Shown here: piece after piece, positions 293 through 9,856 of the stretch
Numbering within the stretch: the stretch's first letter is position 1
Layout: each line of letters opens with the position of its first letter
Virus genome (UHGV): UHGV-2016197
Length of the DNA stretch: 26,969 nt
Direction: 5' to 3' (one strand)
DNA from: a virus
Notes under the pieces: generated by a model
Database searches by the model: none
The model's input: only the letters and a program-made list of their open reading frames with translations
Told to the model about the DNA's origin: nothing
Program-made: the position numbers and the translations under genes

Positions 293-783
293 TCAACGCA
301 CTGGGTTAGTTGAATTTACAACCATGCTCAGTATCTCGATAAACGCAGAGAAATGATGCAGTGGTGGGCAGATTGGCTTGATGAAAGTGTGCTGTAATCC
401 TCATATCCAACCTAAGAGATATGCACAATTTTGTGAATAAGATATTGAGAATTAGCGAAAAGTTTTATTTTGCGTATCATCAATTCAGAATACAAAGTCA
501 CATGCTAATGTTCTGCATTGGTATCTTTTGCTTATCCATGTCTACATTATCGCCAAAATAATAGGTTTTGCCTATCAATTATTTGAATTACTTCCATGAA
601 ATTATAACGCACTTGTAATTTTTGATTATTTTTACCTCTCAAGTGTTTTGTTTCTTCTATCTCTTTGTATTTTTAGCGAAAGTATGCCATATTGCATTCT
701 AATATAACGTGGCGTTGTTTCTGTTTAATGATTTAAATAGTTCAACATAATATTTGCTAACAAATTATATCCAAGCAAATCAT

Positions 784-1929
784 ATGATATTATCATTACA
801 ATATATTAGAGGAATAGCATCATTACTTGTTGTTTTATTCCACTTCAGATTCTTGCTAAATGAGCACTACTCTCAGAAAGATTTGGGTGACCTATTATTT
901 GGGAATGGGCTGTCTGGAGTTGATATATTCTTCATATTAAGTGGATTTATCATCGTATACTCAACAAGAAAGAAGGAAGTTAATGATACTTTCTCATTCT
1001 CAATTAGAAGAATATTTAGAATATACCCATTACTAATCACATGCTGTTGCATGTATTACATAATAAACACTCAATTTCTAACCTATGCTACAGTTGAAAA
1101 CTTTAGAACATTACTTATTTCCATCATTCCATTAAATATAAACTGGAATGAAGGCGCTCCATTCTTTGCCTATAATCTTTTGTACCCGGCCTGGACGATA
1201 ACATATGAAATTGGTTTCTATGTTTTTTTCGGGGTATCAATGTCTATTTCGCATAAATACAGAACAATTATCTGTTCTGTTTTTATAATCATGGTGGTCT
1301 CATTTACACAATACTATGTGAATGGAAATATATCATTTTCAGGTGATGTTAGTGCAGGGTTATTTACAGATAACTGGTTATTAGGATATACAAATGTTAT
1401 TACATCTCCAATGATGTATGAATTCGTTATTGGGATGTTTCTTTCTGAAATATTTACAAACATCAACGAAAGAAAAAGTATTAAAAGGATACTTTCAAAG
1501 TATTCGCTTCAAATACTATGGATTTCATGTGGTATATCCATAATATTATTCATTATCCAGCGACCTTATGGGCATGGATTGAATGGATTTGGGACTATGG
1601 CGATGATACTTATTGCATCATCATTAGTATATGAATACTGCAATATAACACCCAAAATAAAAATATTTAATTTCCTTGGTGAAATATCATATTCTTTATA
1701 TCTAATTCACGCCGTGATACTTGCTTTGTTCTTCTATTATAAGGCAGACCTTGCTGAAATTGGCATAACTGGTGGATTTTCTGTGTTTTTTTCCTTGGTT
1801 ATTATCTCAATAACTGCATCATATCCAATATATATTCTCATTGAAAAGCCAATGATAAATATAGGCAAACGTTTAATTGACAAGAGAAACAATAGCATTA
1901 ATAAAAAAGAAACCGAAATAACAGCGTGA
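784..1929 (+). CDS. Acyltransferase family 3 integral membrane protein; probable surface-polysaccharide (O-antigen) O-acyltransferase, lysogenic conversion moron
   Basis: Translation has the acyltransferase-3 N-terminal pattern (LQYIRGIASLLVVLFH ... GVDIFFILSGFII) and multiple hydrophobic segments. Strongly AT-rich relative to the rest of the window. The ORF-track start at 754 is TTG; first ATG is 784. Sits where Sf6 carries oac (between tailspike and att). Confidence 0.8.
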   Translation: MILSLQYIRGIASLLVVLFHFRFLLNEHYSQKDLGDLLFGNGLSGVDIFFILSGFIIVYSTRKKEVNDTFSFSIRRIFRIYPLLITCCCMYYIINTQFLTYATVENFRTLLISIIPLNINWNEGAPFFAYNLLYPAWTITYEIGFYVFFGVSMSISHKYRTIICSVFIIMVVSFTQYYVNGNISFSGDVSAGLFTDNWLLGYTNVITSPMMYEFVIGMFLSEIFTNINERKSIKRILSKYSLQILWISCGISIILFIIQRPYGHGLNGFGTMAMILIASSLVYEYCNITPKIKIFNFLGEISYSLYLIHAVILALFFYYKADLAEIGITGGFSVFFSLVIISITASYPIYILIEKPMINIGKRLIDKRNNSINKKETEITA

Positions 1930-1941
1930 TAATGACAAAGT

Positions 1942-1968
1942 TAGTGCCGGGATACCCCGGCACTTTTT
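1942..1968 (+). terminator. Rho-independent terminator of the acyltransferase gene, shared with the convergent tailspike 3' end
   Basis: Stem GTGCCGG (1944-1950) / CCGGCAC (1957-1963), loop GATACC, then TTTTTAAT. The tailspike stop codon (1967-1969) lies inside the T tract. Confidence 0.55.
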
Positions 1969-3913
1969 AATCTATTTCGTAAGTGACAGTGATTATCACC
2001 TCTGCATTATTACCCAAAACATTTCGATATATATTCATATTACCTGATAATGTAGTTGCTCCAGTAAGAGTTATATAACTACTATTTGCATCAACCCTTG
2101 GAAGTAAAGCGGTAACTGCTGTTGTTAAATTATTATAGTAGCCTGTACTTCCAACATATGCAGCTTTATTGCTTGATACATATGGTAACCCTCCAATTCT
2201 GAAACCATCTCCTGACCCAATTAAAGTTATACCAAGGTGACATGTTGCCGTTATGATATTGCCACTCCTGACATAATTTCCTTTCTGCTGATAATATGTG
2301 GCATTACCACCTACAGTCGGAATCCAAACTCCAGTTTCTATATCACCACATGACCAGTCTTCTGCTGTTGTTAGTTTTCCAGTAACAATAAATTTACTTC
2401 CCCCACCAGAATTATAAGGAACAAAAATTGGATTTATTCTTGCATAAGTGTTACCGGTCTGCTCATTAAGATCATTTCTACCAATAAGAACCTGACCATT
2501 TTCAAAGTTTGATATCTGGCAGTCAGTTACACTCCAGCCCCTTAATTTTACATCAGCATCCATGACGCCAATAAGCTTGCCAGCGTTACCAATTTTTTCT
2601 TTATGCATATTTACATACACATTTCTTACCGTAACAGACTGAGGGAACAGATAATTAGCAGGATTGGTTTTATCACTTAAAACAGATATTACCCAAGGTC
2701 TGTATTGAGTACTTACTTCACAATAAAATCCATCAATAAGTGTTCCAGATGCCGCTGGTCCAAGTAGTATTCCACCTGTAGAGTGATGCGCACTACCTCC
2801 AATTACTCTCCCCTTAACGCAGTTAATATAGGCAAAATATCCTAAATCTTGATTGTCATAGGCTGACATAGCACAGTCTCTAACTGTTACTCGCGAATTT
2901 CCTCCATCATAAGCTGAGCCATCAGTTTTCTTACCAACTATTGATATAAAGTTACCAATAGCAACTCGACTATAAAAAGTTTTTTTATAACACCCCTCAA
3001 TTAAAATATCCCAGTTTTCAAACTGAGCATATATATCATAAGAGCTGGCGTTCCCATAATCTATGAAATCACAATATCTTATTTTCGGCGTATAAACGGC
3101 ACTTTTTATCTTTATACCACCTAATGCTCTCTCCCCACCTGTGAATCTAATGCCAGTAACGGTGTAATCGCCTTGATAGAAATTATCTGCGGTAGGATTA
3201 TTTTCGTCAGAATCATCACCCAATATAATAGCAAATTCACTCCCTGAATAATTAATTGTAGCCCCCTTATTTGAATATATAGTTACAGGCCTTATAAACT
3301 CCAAAGAATTACTTATTAGATACTCTCCATAAGGAAAAAAAATCTCAACTGGTGGTGAGTACTTAGGTCTGGAGTTTACGTAATTCATAATATTGATTAC
3401 ACCAACATCATCATTCGTGCCATCACCTTTAAACCCAAAGTCTTTCGCGCTCACAAAATCTGCATTTTTATCGTGCTGTGCTCTCTCGATTGCCATAGAG
3501 AGAGGTTGTTTTACACGAACAACTGAATCATCAACTAATAATGGCCCATTTTCAGATAGCAATCTTTCCTGAAATTGATCAGGATCATACTTCAGCACAT
3601 TAGGAAAATAGAACTGCTGCGAACCATACGCATCATAAACAGCCATAGAATGACCTTGCACAGTTACGAATTTGGCAATCTGCCCGTTATATACCGGATA
3701 TCCAGCAGCGTTAATGATGATTGGCTGTGCAACAGAAACGTGAGAGCCGTCTTCGTTTTCCACATAAACCTGAATCTGGTTTTCAGGATTTACAGGGTCA
3801 GTGTCAATTTTACCGATATAAATTTTGCCATTGGCTACGGCTTTAAAAGAACGCGCCATAGTGAAAAGTTGCGAAGGCATCGATACGATCACATTGGCTG
3901 TAATGTCTGTCAT
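1967..3913 (-). CDS. Tailspike protein (P22 gp9-type head-binding N-terminus, divergent receptor-binding domain)
   Basis: N-terminal ~110 aa ([11 protein letters not shown]...[20 protein letters not shown]...[13 protein letters not shown]...VLKYDPDQF) match the P22 gp9 head-binding domain from memory; remainder has beta-helix-like repetitive composition. ATG verified at 3913. Confidence 0.9.
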
Positions 3914-3977
3914 TTAATTTGCTCCAGATACAAGGAATCGCCGCAGCATGGCTACGGTGAGTATTTGTTTGCTTTTT

Positions 3978-4000
3978 GCACTACACTTTTTGTGTAGTGC
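3978..4000. repeat. Perfect 9-bp inverted repeat with 5-nt loop in the tailspike leader
   Basis: gcactacac (3978-3986) ttttt gtgtagtgc (3992-4000); not followed by a U tract on either strand, so operator or RNA hairpin rather than terminator. Confidence 0.4.
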
Positions 4001-4047
4001 TATCTCTCAAGGCCATAGCCGCTGAGTAGCTACGGTGAATTTTGGGC

Positions 4048-4074
4048 ATAAAAAAACCCAGCCGAAGCTGGGTC
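4048..4074 (-). terminator. Rho-independent terminator (minus strand)
   Basis: Minus-strand RNA CCCAGC-UUCG-GCUGGG followed by seven U (plus-strand A run 4050-4056). Confidence 0.6.
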
Positions 4075-4121
4075 GTTGCGTTGGTTATCTGTCAGTAGTT
4101 ATGTACTGGCTGAAGGATTTG

Positions 4122-4147
4122 TACAAAAACCCACCTGACGGTGGGTT
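4122..4147 (-). terminator. Rho-independent terminator immediately downstream of the 322-aa gene (minus strand)
   Basis: Stem AACCCACC (4128-4135) / GGTGGGTT (4140-4147), 4-nt loop, U-rich tail on the minus strand (UUUUUGU). Confidence 0.6.
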
Positions 4148-4153
4148 TCATAA

Positions 4154-5122
4154 TTAGATTTCTGGTTTCATTCTTCCAAAAACCTTTTCTATTCCTTTTT
4201 CGTATTCTTCTCTTGTCTCACTCATCGCTGCGACCCCAAGAAGCTTACCGATATGCTGACGCAAAGCCTTGACACCAATTTCAGAAAGGAACAGATGCAA
4301 CTTATCAGATTGTTTTCCGTTCTCGTCTCGGCTGGCTCGAATCTGTTCAAGGATTTTACCTTTACTCTTTGCTAGCGGGGTGTATATCTGCATGTTGGTT
4401 AGCTGCCCAAAACGAATAGGCCGTCCTTTCTCTGGCCTATTCAGGCCGTACAGTCGATACCACTCCTCGTATAGCTCATCTGGAAATTCCTTTTCATATT
4501 GACGAGCTTCTTCACGAACAAACGCTTTGAACTCGTCAATGACAGCCTGAACTTCTGGACGATAACCAGCAAGCGCATACGCAACCCCCTTAATTCCCGC
4601 CTTAGCGGAGGCATTAATAAGTCTCTGTGCTGCGGCGGCTGCCTTTAACCGTGATTGTGGTAGATCGTCATTATCTTTGGCTTCTATTAGTGCCCTACCA
4701 ATATCAACAATTGCTGTAATGTCATAACCTAACGCTTGATGAACGGTTTTAGACTTCGAAGTAAGTTGAAATTTATAGGGATTTTCCATTTTTCGCTGCA
4801 ATTCTAGATCTCGGTATTTGCTCATATACTGAGCGCCAAGTAGTTGATCTAAATCCCTGGCATGTTCACCAATCCCTAGCAACTGAGATAATCCAGTTTT
4901 CGTAACAACGACAGTTTTCGACTCGTCATCCAGTACATAACATTCAGCATCAATGCCAAAATCATCTAAAAAGTTACCACGATGAGTTGCCCTGAGAATC
5001 TTACTTTTCCATCTTGCAGCAGCTGCTTTCTTTGCTATTTCAGAACGCTGCTCTTTAGTCAGCGACTTTGCGCGAGCGATCCCGCCCTTAGCTTTCCCTT
5101 CACTACTTTTCTTTTCTGTCAT
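4154..5122 (-). CDS. Hypothetical accessory protein, P63C-domain-like, with basic N-terminal putative nucleic-acid-binding segment; function unknown
   Basis: 322-aa ORF; ATG verified at 5122 with AAGGTG Shine-Dalgarno. N-terminus KGGIARAKSLTKEQRSEIAKKAAAARW followed by ATHRGNFLDDFGIDAECYVLDDESKTVV resembles the pattern I recall for P63C-domain phage proteins. Own promoter and two terminators; not part of the P22 core virion gene set. Confidence 0.7.
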   Translation of the reverse strand: MTEKKSSEGKAKGGIARAKSLTKEQRSEIAKKAAAARWKSKILRATHRGNFLDDFGIDAECYVLDDESKTVVVTKTGLSQLLGIGEHARDLDQLLGAQYMSKYRDLELQRKMENPYKFQLTSKSKTVHQALGYDITAIVDIGRALIEAKDNDDLPQSRLKAAAAAQRLINASAKAGIKGVAYALAGYRPEVQAVIDEFKAFVREEARQYEKEFPDELYEEWYRLYGLNRPEKGRPIRFGQLTNMQIYTPLAKSKGKILEQIRASRDENGKQSDKLHLFLSEIGVKALRQHIGKLLGVAAMSETREEYEKGIEKVFGRMKPEI

Positions 5123-5277
5123 AATGCAAGCACCTTGTTGTGATATATGCTTGCATTATATACACTGTACACACATACAAGCAAGCATAAAACCAAAACA
5201 AAATGCTTGCATTACAACCGCGCTACTCCAACTACACATTATCATCTGGTATCCTGCACAAAACTAAGGAGGTTGGT
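5123..5277. promoter_or_regulatory. Divergent control region with four copies of a 9-10 bp operator-like motif (ATGCTTGCAT and its complement) and a perfect TATAAT for the minus-strand gene
   Basis: Motif copies at 5124-5132, 5147-5156, 5181-5188 and 5203-5212 in alternating orientation, forming two inverted-repeat pairs with 14-15 bp spacers. Minus-strand TATAAT at 5155-5160 abuts one copy; AAGGAGG Shine-Dalgarno at 5266-5272 serves the plus-strand ORF. Confidence 0.5.
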
Positions 5278-5606
5278 GTGCTTGAATGGTTTCTGTTGGC
5301 TGCATTAGTCGTTTCTGGTTTGGTGTATGAGTATCGAATGCACTCTCTAACAAAAAAATAGGAATTCTAGAAAACGAATATTGTGCTCTCAAATCCTCAC
5401 TGGAACGTGAGCAAGGGGACTTAAAAATCTCTCTGTCTAGCATTGAGCGTTCTATAGAGAGCTTAGAGGATAAGGTTGATCGTATAAAGAATGAGGATAT
5501 TCATGATATTAAGGACGACATATCCTTCTTAAAATCTTGGTTGAAAAATGTTGGGAAAATTGCCACATCAACACGAGATAAGCTCAATCCATCCATGGAT
5601 GACTAA
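5278..5606 (+). CDS. Small membrane-anchor ORF (27 codons, GTG start) that reaches a 83-codon coiled-coil-like downstream frame only through a -1 shift at an A7 tract; possible recoded gene, phase-variable gene or frameshifted pseudogene
   Basis: Strong SD AAGGAGG + 5 nt + GTG (5278). Frame 0 reads (M)LEWFLLAALVVSGLVYEYRMHSLTKK then TAG at 5359-5361. Heptamer A_AAA_AAA at 5352-5358; -1 frame continues IGILENEYCALKSSLEREQGDLKISLSSIERSIESLEDKVDRIKNEDIHDIKDDISFLKSWLKNVGKIATSTRDKLNPSMDD to TAA at 5604-5606 and has no ATG/GTG/TTG start of its own. Confidence 0.3.
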
Positions 5607-7766
5607 TTACTCCTGTGCCATTCCGCTTAGCGATGCCACAATTCCAGCTCTTGCTAAACGCTGGAACTCTTCGTTTCCTAGTGCCTCGCGTATTGCTTTT
5701 ACGGCGGCCTTATTTGCCATAAATCTGCGTTCCGCTGCCGCTAATGCTTCTTTGCTTCCGCCTGCTCTTACTGCTTTAGTGGCTTCCTGAACTGCTTTCT
5801 CTATCGCATACCGACCACTACGTGTGGTGGCAATTTTAGATACAGCGCCTTTTAACCCAGCGCCAACTAAAGCACCTGCGGCAGCGCCTGCAATGCCTCC
5901 TCCAGCGCCACCAACAATGGCACCTGATGTTGAGTTGGCAATTGCATTTAACACTGTTGATGTGACGTTGGATAAACCAGCATCCAGATCGCGTAGTACA
6001 TTGGCAGTTCTCCCTGTTCTTTCAATATACTGCTGAGGTTTCACTGCTGCTCTTGCAAGAGTGCCATACGCATCAGCAATTCTTCCAAGCTCTGAGGAAT
6101 ATCTGCTAATGGCTTTTACATTTTGTGGAGTGAGTATCTCTGCGATATGGTTAATTCCTGCTGCATCAGCTTTGCCACCACGTACACCATGCGAGATGGC
6201 ATCCTGCAACATTGATGATATAGCAGGAACACGCTCTGATTCTGGCAGCGCGCGGATCATAGAATGGAATCCAGCAGGACCATTAAGACCTTTAGCTGAC
6301 GATGATTGAAGGGATTTTACTCCATTCGTAATCAGTGCATCTGTTGCCAAATCACGCCCGAAAACAGACTCTGCACTCTCTTGTGCTGATAACCTCGCTT
6401 TAGACAGATCATTAGCTTTTTGCCAGTCATCAAGAAATCCGCCGTTTTCCGCCATTGTGCGCATATCATCAGTAATTGCCCGGCGTATTTCCCCTGCTCT
6501 CCTTGCCGCATTTGCCTCTCCGCTACGCTTATATTTTTGCTCCGCATCAGCAAATTTCGCTCTCCATGCTTTCATGCCATCAAATGTTACTCCACCTTGA
6601 TTGTTTGCCTGAACAAACTGTTTCATTTCAGGAGTAAGCGGTATGCCGGCAGATCGCTCTGCCTGAATAACGGCATTACCATTTAGCATTCTTGCTTTTT
6701 GATTTGGCATTGTTGACCGTACGTCATCCCATGCCGCGCGCTCGGCATCCTTCATCTGATCAAGATTTTGAAGAATCCTTTGTTTTATAGCCGCACTTTT
6801 TTCTGATGCCGTTCCAGATGCGGCCCCAAATTCATCAAGGTTTCGACTTAACTTTGATGATATTTCGTTAAATGCTGCCTGATGGGCGTCCTGAACAATT
6901 CCTGGTGTTGATGCCAATGCGCCTTCGGCTTGTGCAATTCCACGACTTCCAGATCGCATTCCTGGTGTTAATGCGTTTATATCAATTCCAGCAGACTCAG
7001 CCGCTTTTGCTACATCTTCGGACACATTAGCGGCCTGACTGGCAATTGACTGACGCCCAGCACCTGACTTTGCCATCCTGGAAACATCATTAGCAGAATT
7101 CAGTGCTGCACCACCAAGAGCCTGTGAAACCCTTGGCGCAATAACGCGCCCGACACCTGAAAGAACGCCTTGAGCACCAATATTGATACCACCGTTAATG
7201 GCAGCATTTTGTGCAAAGTCGCCCTCCTGATTTGCAGCATCAGCAAGAGAACCTGCAATCATGTTTCCTGCGGAACCGATATCTCCAGCGAGCTTTGCTG
7301 TCGCTCCAGCAGCTTTTGCCGCTGTGCCAATTGGCAGGAGATACCCACCAAATGTTTCACCGGCTTGCGCCCAACGGTCTGTCGGTCGATCGACAGGGCG
7401 ATAAACATCATCCAAAACCTTGGGGCCACCAAGCCCATGGCTGATTGCATTAATCAGACTTGCGCCACCCTGCAATACGTCAAATGGTATGTTTACCAGA
7501 CCACGACCAGCCTGTTCTGCAATTTGCCCTGCACTTTGACCACCTGTGAGCCAATCGCCAGCTTGTTGCATCAATGATGGTTCTTCTTTCTGCTGCTGAT
7601 GCGGAGGGTATGCTGCATAAAACTGATCTCTTGCTTCAGCCCATTTGTCACCAGCCTTAGGGGCAACAACCTCATCAAAATATTGCGCTTGAGCCTGTGC
7701 TTTCTGTTCTTCAGTTAACGCCTGATACTGTGGAGAGGCGATAACATCTTTCCATGCTTTAGCCAT
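5607..7766 (-). CDS. Ejection (pilot) protein, P22 gp16-like
   Basis: 719-aa Ala/Gly/Gln-rich protein at the gp16 position, last gene of the head-tail operon; ATG verified at 7766, overlapping the upstream stop (TAATG). Confidence 0.75.
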
Positions 7767-9154
7767 TAATCACCCCATAGTGAAGAAAAGTTACTGCTGG
7801 CTGCTGGCTGTGATACCTGTGCAGGTTGAGATTGCTGCCGCTGAGATTTACCAACATTAACGTTATATTGTTGGTTGTAATTGTTGGTGTATTCCTGAAT
7901 CTCACGAATCGACTGCTGCATAGCCTCCGGGCTTGAATAGTCAACCTGCGGCATCCCCTGAAAATACATCTTCGCTTCTGCAACGGTGTTAATACCACTG
8001 GCACCCATGTCCCTTGCTGCCGCCACACCCTGTTTCTGCATTCTGCCCTGAATACGTTGTGCTGAGTTATATAACTGGCGCTGCTCTTTTCCCGTTAATC
8101 GGCTGCGAACATCAGCACCAATTGCTGGATTACCTGCACCGCCTGTCATTCCTGTCATGAAATCGAGAGCAGAAGCGTCTGCATTTGCGATCGCGTCGAT
8201 ATCCTTCTTCATGGCATAGTTTTGTGCTGATGCAGACGATGTTGCCGGCGCAGCGATTGAACTGGCAGGAACGCGAACCATATTCCCCTCGTTGTCGATG
8301 CCTTCGTAGAACGCATTAGCCCCAGCGCCGTGAAGTTTCCCTCCTACCGTTACAGTTCTGCCATCTGATAACTGAACTGTACGCTCATCATTCCCAGCGG
8401 TTCCTCTTGTTGACGCTCGCTGCATTGCCAAATCCTGCCCGCGTCGCGCAGTAGAAGCAGATAAGTCCTGACCGCGCATCGTGATGTTCTGACCTCGTGC
8501 TGTTAGCGCCTCTCCAGCCTGATTGCTGCGGATTGTCTCTGCCAGCCTGCCTCGGTCAATTTCACGACCAGCCATCTTGTCCTGAACATTGAAGTAATCA
8601 ATCGGACCAAGAGCAGCCATCCCAAGGTGATCAACAAACTCACCAAATCCTGAAGGATTCTGCTGATACATCTGAGCAACGCTGTTAGGGTCAACACCGA
8701 CGCGAGTCAGTTCCTTGGCGTTGTTTTGCAGCCATGATTGCATTGCTTCTGGAGACGATGACGCAAGGCGTGCGCCAGCCGCTAAGGTGCCGATAGAATT
8801 ACGCTGGTCTTCATCAATGAATCCCATGCCTTTACGAACGGATTCAATCTGGTCTGGATATTGAGTAGCCAACTGACGCAAAGCACCGCGATCACCAGAC
8901 GCATAAGCATTAGCGTACGCCTGCTGAAATTCTTTCTGCCGCTGAGCCTGCTTCTCCTGCTGAAACACCCCCGCAATACCTGAAAGGCCTTGCAAAGCAG
9001 TCAGCCCAACATTGTTAGCGCCTGAACGCTCAATATCATTGTTCTGCCTGATAAGCTGAAGCGTATTGCCGATGTCATTTACGCTCGGAGCGTTTGAGTT
9101 GACGCCGCCGATACCAGCCAACAATCCGCCATTTGATCCTTGCCAAGTAGCCAT
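7766..9154 (-). CDS. Ejection protein, P22 gp20-like
   Basis: 462 aa, conserved position between gp7 and gp16 homologues; ATG verified at 9154. Confidence 0.75.
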
Positions 9155-9163
9155 GATTACCCC

Positions 9164-9856
9164 TTAAAACAACGAGCCAAGCAATCCGATACCAGCACCA
9201 ATGCCAGCGCCCCAAGGTGTTGATGTTCCCAAAAGGCTGGCAAGACCTGCACCGGCAATCGCACCAGACGTGCCACCGCTAATTGCAGTCTGAAGACTTG
9301 ATGGTTTATTGGCATTAGCAGCGGCAAGAGCTGCGCTTTGCTGTGCAATGCTGCTCATGTTGTTGGCGTACGTCTGCCCGGCGTTTGCCTGACCTTGCAG
9401 AGCACCAAGCCCAACGTTTGCCAGATTGTTGTAATTGCTCATCTGGTTTGATAACCAAGACTGACCGAGAGTCGGCGCGATCGTAGCCAGTTGATTGCTT
9501 GTGGCTGTCGAACCAAGTCCTCCCGTAGCCTCCGCAGCAGCAAGACTCTGGTAACGAGCCTGACCTGCAAGGTCTTTATACTGCTGAGAGTTGTAATACT
9601 GATTAAGTGCCTGCCCCTGACCTTCCAAACTGGAAAGGTTCTGAAGCTGGTTAACATACTGCTCCGCAAGAGGCGTGAACGGAGCAAGGTTTTTCATGAT
9701 CGTCTGCCACTGCTGATTTTGCAGGTCTGCGGCATACTTCTGAGCTTCTGCGGCATACTTTGCACTTTTATCAGAACTGCCACCTTTCCCGCCTTTTTCA
9801 TGGCAATAAGGTTCCTCGCCGCGCAGTTTTCTGCCCAGCTTAAATGCATATAACAT
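9164..9856 (-). CDS. Ejection protein, P22 gp7-like
   Basis: 230 aa; N-terminus MLYAFKLGRKLRGEEP...KGGKGGSSDKS and Gly/Ala-rich C-terminus ending GLLGSLF match P22 gp7 from memory; ATG verified at 9856. Confidence 0.8.
   Translation of the reverse strand: MLYAFKLGRKLRGEEPYCHEKGGKGGSSDKSAKYAAEAQKYAADLQNQQWQTIMKNLAPFTPLAEQYVNQLQNLSSLEGQGQALNQYYNSQQYKDLAGQARYQSLAAAEATGGLGSTATSNQLATIAPTLGQSWLSNQMSNYNNLANVGLGALQGQANAGQTYANNMSSIAQQSAALAAANANKPSSLQTAISGGTSGAIAGAGLASLLGTSTPWGAGIGAGIGLLGSLF

Follow-up and report, generated by a model that had tools for sequence, protein, structure and literature searches.

The immunity I (immI) region of phage P22, where Mnt and Arc act at the overlapping promoters Pant and Pmnt, occupies the same slot as the cassette described here, i.e., between gene 16 and the tailspike gene. 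The two are further alike in that a small dedicated control region carries inverted-repeat operators over promoter elements, and in their autoregulation, which is presumed for the present locus. They differ in that the window analysed here (the whole stretch of 26,969 bp, derived from a P22/HK620-like (Lederbergvirus) phage or prophage) is without mnt and arc, that the presumed binder is without a ribbon-helix-helix Pfam match, and that four asymmetric 10-bp sites with starts 23-24 bp apart stand in place of a single operator of 17-21 bp. The sequence of these sites is unrelated to the Arc and Mnt operators.

The OR1-3 sites of phage lambda, at which CI and Cro control PR and PRM, provide a second comparison, since there too several similar sites lie approximately 23-24 bp apart over -35 and -10 elements and are subject to autoregulation (again presumed here), while the divergent promoters of lambda have a counterpart in the ancestral two-gene form of the present locus, in which sites A and B act as -35 elements. 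In contrast to OR, the sites considered here are 10 bp long and arranged as inverted pairs, with the last site lying over the start codon, and the P63C protein encoded downstream is without a recognisable helix-turn-helix repressor domain and is not part of this phage's immunity region. C proteins of restriction-modification systems and toxin-antitoxin systems represent compact mobile cassettes in which the gene product binds to paired inverted repeats that cover its promoter and start site, with leaders that are short or absent. The present cassette differs from these in its protein family and motif, and has no toxin, antitoxin or restriction-modification partner inside it. Finally, the MS2 coat protein hairpin and T4 RegA resemble the present locus in that a repeat lies over the ribosome-binding site and the start codon, with a hairpin being possible, whereas here the predicted transcription start omits the 5' arm, compensatory covariation is lacking and two of the four sites are located upstream of the promoter.

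The repeat region lies between a gene encoding a 322-aa P63C protein on the minus strand and an hkcB-like gene on the plus strand, in the following setting:

9164-9856, minus strand, gp7, a late gene
7766-9154, minus strand, gp20, a late gene
5607-7766, minus strand, gp16, a late gene
from 5278 (start codon GTG), plus strand, hkcB-like gene, the other gene flanking the repeat region
about 4125-5240, no strand assigned, mobile cassette consisting of the four sites and the P63C gene, with approximate borders taken from megablast matches
4154-5122, minus strand, 322-aa P63C gene, with the P63C domain at residues 199-286
5009-5098, minus strand, basic N-terminal module GKAKGGIARAKSLTKEQRSEIAKKAAAARW of the P63C protein (codons 9-38), a candidate DNA-recognition element
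1967-3913, minus strand, tailspike gene, a late gene
754-1929, plus strand, O-acetyltransferase gene

The hkcB-like gene of the window (5278-5606) possesses a run of seven A residues (5352-5358) where phage vB_EcoP-611R6, E. coli 14EC017 and HK620 have eight, and its frame is broken after 27 codons; it is either a pseudogene or the product of a homopolymer sequencing error. A terminator-like hairpin (4074-4055, minus strand) is present 3' of the P63C gene, and this region matches a stretch of HK620 annotated as remnants of ant and mnt terminators.

The four sites, designated A to D, and the expression signals with which they coincide are as follows:

5203-5212, minus strand, site A (distal), ATGCAAGCAT on the gene strand, at -90 from the ATG
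5179-5188, minus strand, site B, ATGCTTGCTT on the gene strand, at -66 from the ATG
5179-5184 on the plus strand, -35-like hexamer TTGCTT inside site B
5155-5160, minus strand, predicted -10 hexamer TATAAT, sharing its final two bases with the beginning of site C
5147-5156, minus strand, site C, ATGCAAGCAT on the gene strand, at -34 from the ATG
5131-5136, minus strand, ribosome-binding site AAGGTG, 8 nt before the ATG and overlapping site D by 3 nt
5124-5133, minus strand, site D (proximal), GTGCTTGCAT on the gene strand, at -11 from the ATG

On the plus strand these sites read ATGCAAGCAc (5124-5133), ATGCTTGCAT (5147-5156), aAGCAAGCAT (5179-5188) and ATGCTTGCAT (5203-5212), thus representing four copies of the motif ATGCAAGCAT/ATGCTTGCAT in alternating orientation (5124-5212) upstream of the P63C gene; TGCAAGCA is taken as the core of the sites and TGCTTCCA as an altered form of this core. 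Each 10-mer is near-palindromic (ATGC-WW-GCAT), and its orientation is therefore set by the central AA/TT alone. The inverted pairs are A-B and C-D, with site starts 23-24 bp apart within a pair. Both this direct reading and the comparative data presented below confirm the original prediction of four alternating operator-like copies arranged as two inverted pairs; the spacers are 13-14 bp rather than 14-15 bp in length.

The -35 and -10 hexamers are separated by 18 bp (5161-5178), and transcription is predicted to start near position 5148, with site C covering the end of the -10 and this putative start. Site D is located between the ribosome-binding site and the ATG (5120-5122), and ends one base before the latter. 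The proposed overlap of the copies with the minus-strand TATAAT and with the ribosome-binding site and start region is correct, the former involving site C and the latter site D. A strict promoter scan did not list the minus-strand promoter in sites B and C, because its -35 matches TTGACA at only three of six positions. No intrinsic terminator was called in 5123-5277, where the loops of the repeats are 13-14 nt in length, the flanks are unconserved and a U-tract is lacking; on the last of these grounds a reading of the repeats as a terminator was rejected.

A motif search of the window and of related genomes bore the motif out. Two exact matches to ATGCWWGCAT are present in the window, both of them in this region, while ten window matches have at most one mismatch to the motif (7.2 expected), four of them within 89 bp; only 2 of 3000 first-order Markov simulations produced four matches in a stretch of 100 bp. 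The comparative set consisted of 124 distinct upstream regions pooled from genome, viral and E. coli loci, in which a four-site call meant the presence of all four sites, each with at most two mismatches. Four sites were found in 89 of these 124 regions, at approximately -87, -64, -32 and -8 from the start codon, in lineages extending from Enterobacterales to Acidobacteriota, Myxococcota and Oscillospiraceae. Start-to-start spacing was 22-25 bp for A-B, 30-32 bp for B-C and 21-25 bp for C-D, and the same layout was observed in most of 48 homologous genes for which 200 nt of upstream sequence was inspected. Measured over the 100 nt that precede each of 36 homologous genes, site density amounted to 34.7 per kb, compared to 0.062 per kb elsewhere in the same loci (a ~560-fold difference).

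Among 46 distant loci, whose proteins are <60% identical to that of the window, each position of a site carries 1.3-2.0 bits of information, compared to 0-0.3 bits in flanks and spacers. Two informative exceptions occur outside the sites, i.e., TA at positions -4/-3 relative to site C and a GGAG-like signal just 5' of site D; in most non-enteric relatives the last AT of site D is the AT of the ATG. Furthermore, all 72 non-redundant loci have TTGCnn within site B, at a distance of 16-18 bp from the -10, and TAnnAT ends in site C in 54 of the 72, compared to 4 at the corresponding position of site A, which served as a control. These positions, along with the 16-18 bp spacer, identify the array as a sigma-70-type promoter, as judged from sequence, in which one site lies over the -35, one over the -10 and the predicted start, one upstream and one over the first ~25 transcribed bases.

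Inverted pairs of this kind might alternatively act as RNA, with either the pairs themselves or a nested A-D/B-C hairpin concealing the start codon and its ribosome-binding site, serving either as a translational operator or as a signal for transcript stability or processing, and possibly bound by the N-terminal module. In such a structure the C-D hairpin would place the ribosome-binding site in its loop and the start codon at the 3' stem, and the whole region, if transcribed, folds to -50.9 kcal/mol (z = -5.6); in this prophage, late transcripts, which judging by gene order proceed from gene 16 to the tailspike gene, would include it. However, the conserved -10 ends in site C and predicts a start at the 3' edge of that site, so that the gene's own mRNA would be without the 5' arm and is predicted to be unstructured (z = 0.7), while the A-B pair is positioned upstream of the promoter. 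Since a single consensus underlies all four sites, every forward copy complements every reverse copy, and the nested hairpin is thus an automatic result of the arrangement; its long form is, moreover, unconserved in the spacers. Watson-Crick counts of 807 and 806 within pairs compare to 781 and 794 across pairs (of 890), and a recurrent G-to-A change at position 7 of site D occurs without compensation, and for want of pair-specific compensatory change an RNA hairpin is not favoured. Rfam matches were all far below the gathering scores and represented generic microRNA-like hairpins. Some sources apply the name 'RNA-binding protein' to small proteins carrying the module, although this name has no Pfam or NCBIfam basis. 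In view of the start geometry, the missing compensation and the sub-threshold Rfam matches, the RNA model is ranked low and considered improbable.

The association between the sites and the gene family was also evident from the DNA side. A blind scan of IMG/VR for exact matches to the pattern ATGCAAGCAT-N10-18-ATGCTTGCAT yielded 42 loci, and in no fewer than 36 of these a family gene or its module lies beside the pattern. An adjoining homologue was detected by tblastn in 33 of the 42, five of these homologues being just 25-32% identical, while the N-terminal module is carried by L077, L088 (a truncated P22-like locus) and L095, which encodes a more distant P63C protein. In L077 (3924-6135), an approximately 1.3-kb insertion interrupts a P63C-family gene downstream of about codon 41 and leaves the module as a 41-aa ORF behind its sites, and an interpretation of this locus as encoding a free-standing 41-aa module protein was rejected. 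L070, L072, L083, L085 and L090 each have a single site pair, the exact pairs of L070 and L072 adjoining unrelated genes. In L092 (8155-8385), a 65-aa ribbon-helix-helix-like ORF that adjoins a tyrosine integrase gene is preceded by a ribosome-binding site and by a perfect C-D-like pair whose last site includes the ATG; no P63C homologue was found within 13 kb of this pair.

The 322-aa protein belongs to PHROG 2384 (function: unknown) and matches Pfam family PF10546 over residues 199-286 with 52.7 bits (gathering cut-off 26.1), and all 30 aligned homologues likewise match this family. Full-length homologues that are 45-90% identical occur across phyla, in Enterobacterales, Burkholderiales, Xanthomonadales, Alphaproteobacteria, Myxococcota, Acidobacteriota, Syntrophaceae and Oscillospiraceae, and the genomic contexts of the family loci are phage or prophage throughout. 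A literature search on P63C function and on the motif returned nothing relevant. The most conserved stretch of the family is the 30-aa N-terminal module, with the consensus GGxARAxxL[ST]xExRxEIAKKAAxARW, which an AlphaFold2 model renders, at low confidence, as two helices (residues 12-19 and 23-39). Profile searches of the module against Pfam, NCBIfam, PADLOC and PDB gave no usable match, the 322-aa protein has no ribbon-helix-helix match in Pfam, and the AlphaFold2 model matched no solved fold. Given this lack of a matching family, PDB sequence or solved fold, the module is regarded as a candidate DNA-binding element.

Its candidacy draws on the way in which sites and module are distributed: both are present in 99 loci, the module only in 17, the sites only in none, and neither in four, these counts being uncorrected for phylogeny. 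The 17 module-only loci mostly have a degenerate site D, shifted sites or variant motifs. Relatives that are 25-32% identical and possess a canonical module keep canonical sites (L066, L068, L069, L073, L094 and ORF23 of phage ST104); for example, ST104 ORF23, which is 29% identical, has sites at -92, -68, -36 and -11 from the start MSDKES. Conversely, four homologues from as many lineages, in which the module is missing or the N-terminus is different (L048, L053, L057 and L058), have none of the four sites, and are still 44-50% identical elsewhere in the protein.

Changes in the module are likewise accompanied by changes in the repeat. Helix 2 is SEIAKKAAAARW in canonical members, and ESSRKAVAAKKE, without RW, in the type represented by phage 933W; this subfamily is 27% identical and without ATGCAAGCAT, having in its place an ACGTGCA/TGCACGT repeat that is kept in 933W relatives of 87% and 52% protein identity. 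Three ACGTGCA/TGCACGT copies are located near the start upstream of ST933Wp35 in phage 933W (L196:1082-1117), and such copies are also seen in L222 and L224. L225, of the 933W type and with helix 2 REIAKKAAAAKKE, is back to ATGCAAGCA. An acidobacterial group with an extended N-terminus and the helix EIARAA(I/V) possesses a related but different repeat, GGGCAAGTATA. In these sequences, the sites track the module and not the rest of the protein.

The main observation against the module as recogniser of the sites is provided by abundant proteins of ~78 aa which end in the module, with up to 92% identity over the aligned stretch, and which have no such sites within 1.5 kb, though these would be expected upstream. 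Such proteins (L107-L112, P0122-P0240 and also L022) follow the pattern KRPxDxNxLAKxIVDIATGE...GGxARAKSLT..RSEIAKKAAAARW; their loci are without ATGCAAGCAT sites and have a common upstream element, GGTAGTGGnnCAGTTTGAAA, instead.

Megablast comparison with E. coli genomes revealed that the cassette is one moving unit among P22-like prophages, found between different flanks: its matches break at query positions 26 and about 1141-1181, beyond which the flanks differ, and in prophages without the P63C gene similarity returns only at about 5240-5247. Because the stretch ~4125-5240 moves as a unit, the repeats are part of the P63C cassette and not of the adjoining gene. The four sites are kept in enteric cassettes across 57-100% protein identity. 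Since the enteric cassette holds the P63C gene alone, with no second gene, the P63C product is the parsimonious candidate for the binder. A conserved terminator, AGGTCGCAGAAATGCGGCCTTTTTT, adjoins site A in most enteric cassettes; it is directly upstream of that site in L007, L009-L011, L197, L222 and many of L135-L191, and is missing from the cassette of the window. The evidence directly shows that the sites exist, how they are spaced, that they are deeply conserved, and that they are inherited together with the gene and its module.

In phage vB_EcoP-611R6, the closest cultured relative, the P63C gene is flanked by gene 16 on one side and by a complete mnt-arc-ant module on the other. These immunity I genes, present in the closest relatives, are missing from the window (3914-4153), and no mnt or arc ORFs or Pfam matches were detected between 3914 and 5606; in the relatives, mnt and arc form a separate module that adjoins the P63C cassette. 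The P63C gene occupies the immI/sieA slot, where accessory genes insert in such phages, and in phage ST104 a P63C-family gene directly follows cI. The suggested tie of the array to the lysogenic state is a guess from this gene position. The prophage repressor, which had been put forward as a possible binder, is not implicated, as the array accompanies the P63C gene in unrelated phages and in other bacterial phyla.

About two thirds of the non-enteric loci examined contain a divergent gene for an IS1-family-like protein with helix-turn-helix (HTH) and DDE regions (e.g., L039:1979-2866, with equivalents in L013, L014, L019, L023, L032, L041, L043, L049, L050, L052, L059 and L060). The promoter of this gene consists of a -35 TTGCAT, which is the opposite strand of site A, followed by 17 bp, (C/T)ATAAT, about 7 nt and the ATG, and is of the leaderless type. 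With site A supplying this -35, the ancestral form of the locus is one in which control is bidirectional and sites A and B serve as the two -35s. The designation 'divergent promoter region' in the original prediction therefore suits the ancestral two-gene form but not the window, which has no convincing plus-strand -10. A plus-strand promoter for the hkcB-like gene with site A as its -35 was rejected, no acceptable -10 being present in the window, and no IS1-family insertion sequence gene was found in the window.

With its N-terminal helix-turn-helix and with site A as its -35, the IS1-like HTH+DDE protein might itself bind these operators, as might the prophage immunity repressor, a host regulator, or Mnt/Arc, whose genes adjoin the cassette in close relatives of the prophage. 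However, perfect sites are found without the IS1-like gene in enteric cassettes and in several Burkholderiales and gammaproteobacterial loci, and this persistence makes the IS1-like protein an unlikely binder. The window, for its part, is without mnt and arc in the interval from the cassette to the tailspike gene, and conservation across phyla and unrelated phage types rules out any one host factor or phage repressor. Furthermore, the sites vanish where the P63C protein's own module is missing. Binding by a protein other than the P63C product is hence considered unlikely.

The link to a DDE gene in many loci, the evident mobility of the cassette and the potential of the four sites to extrude as a cruciform might also suggest structural DNA sites for recombination, transposition or replication, i.e., cruciform ends or internal sites of an IS1-related unit. 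Yet the sites lie between two genes, internal to the cassette and away from its approximate ends at 4125 and 5240, and a search around the IS1-like/P63C gene pair turned up no terminal inverted repeats. The IS1-like protein scores 67 bits against an NCBIfam cut-off of 100, and a register of the sites that is fixed relative to the -35, -10, ribosome-binding site and ATG, as seen here, would be expected of expression control. A structural role of this type is regarded as very improbable, and more so than either of the two preceding alternatives.

Taken together, the dense and conserved sites, their overlap with the predicted -35, -10 and start, and their co-inheritance and co-varying specificity with the P63C gene are those of an operator array, and we consider it probable that the four sites act as autorepression operators of the P63C gene, bound by its own product. 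That a protein binds here, that it is the P63C product, and that repression is the effect are points we infer from these comparisons; the dedicated autoregulator of the original prediction gains support in this manner from phylogenetic footprinting, promoter geometry and co-occurrence with the module. The operators would form part of both the sigma-70-type promoter and the translation start of the P63C-family gene, and the protein would read the core TGCAAGCA via its basic N-terminal two-helix module, occupying the inverted pairs A-B and C-D. Occupation of site B would cover the -35, occupation of site C would cover the -10 and transcription start, and site D would lie over the initial 25 bases of the transcript, within which both the ribosome-binding site and the start codon fall. 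With promoter and start covered in this way by bound sites B, C and D, RNA polymerase would be excluded or blocked, and such occupancy may hold expression of the accessory gene at a set level.

More tentatively, and with slightly less than even confidence, the module may represent a new portable sequence-specific DNA-binding motif for TGCAAGCA, and the P63C proteins phylum-spanning, phage-borne transcription factors with subfamily-specific operators. If this is true, the presence of the module in thousands of ~78-aa proteins, along with the pairing with the IS1-like gene, would point to a wider regulatory or mobile-element system.

The array also marks the true start codons of P63C-family genes and the borders of a compact accessory cassette that moves among P22-like phages. 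The annotated starts in ST104 (L197:1117-2196) and 611R6 (L001:5080-5484) run across the sites; for ST104 orf23 the most likely start is 36 nt downstream of the annotation, at MSDKES, while that of the 611R6 hkcB-like CDS is most likely the GTG after the ribosome-binding site AAGGAGG, and not the ATG inside site A. The element thus belongs to a familiar class, and is notable for its cross-phylum nucleotide conservation and its candidate DNA-binding module. P63C-domain proteins are common in prophages, including the Stx phage 933W and Salmonella phages of the ST104/ST64T type, and have no assigned function; a cis-element whose nucleotide sequence is kept in sources as distant as E. coli prophages, Acidobacteriota and Clostridia provides a handle on the function of this family.
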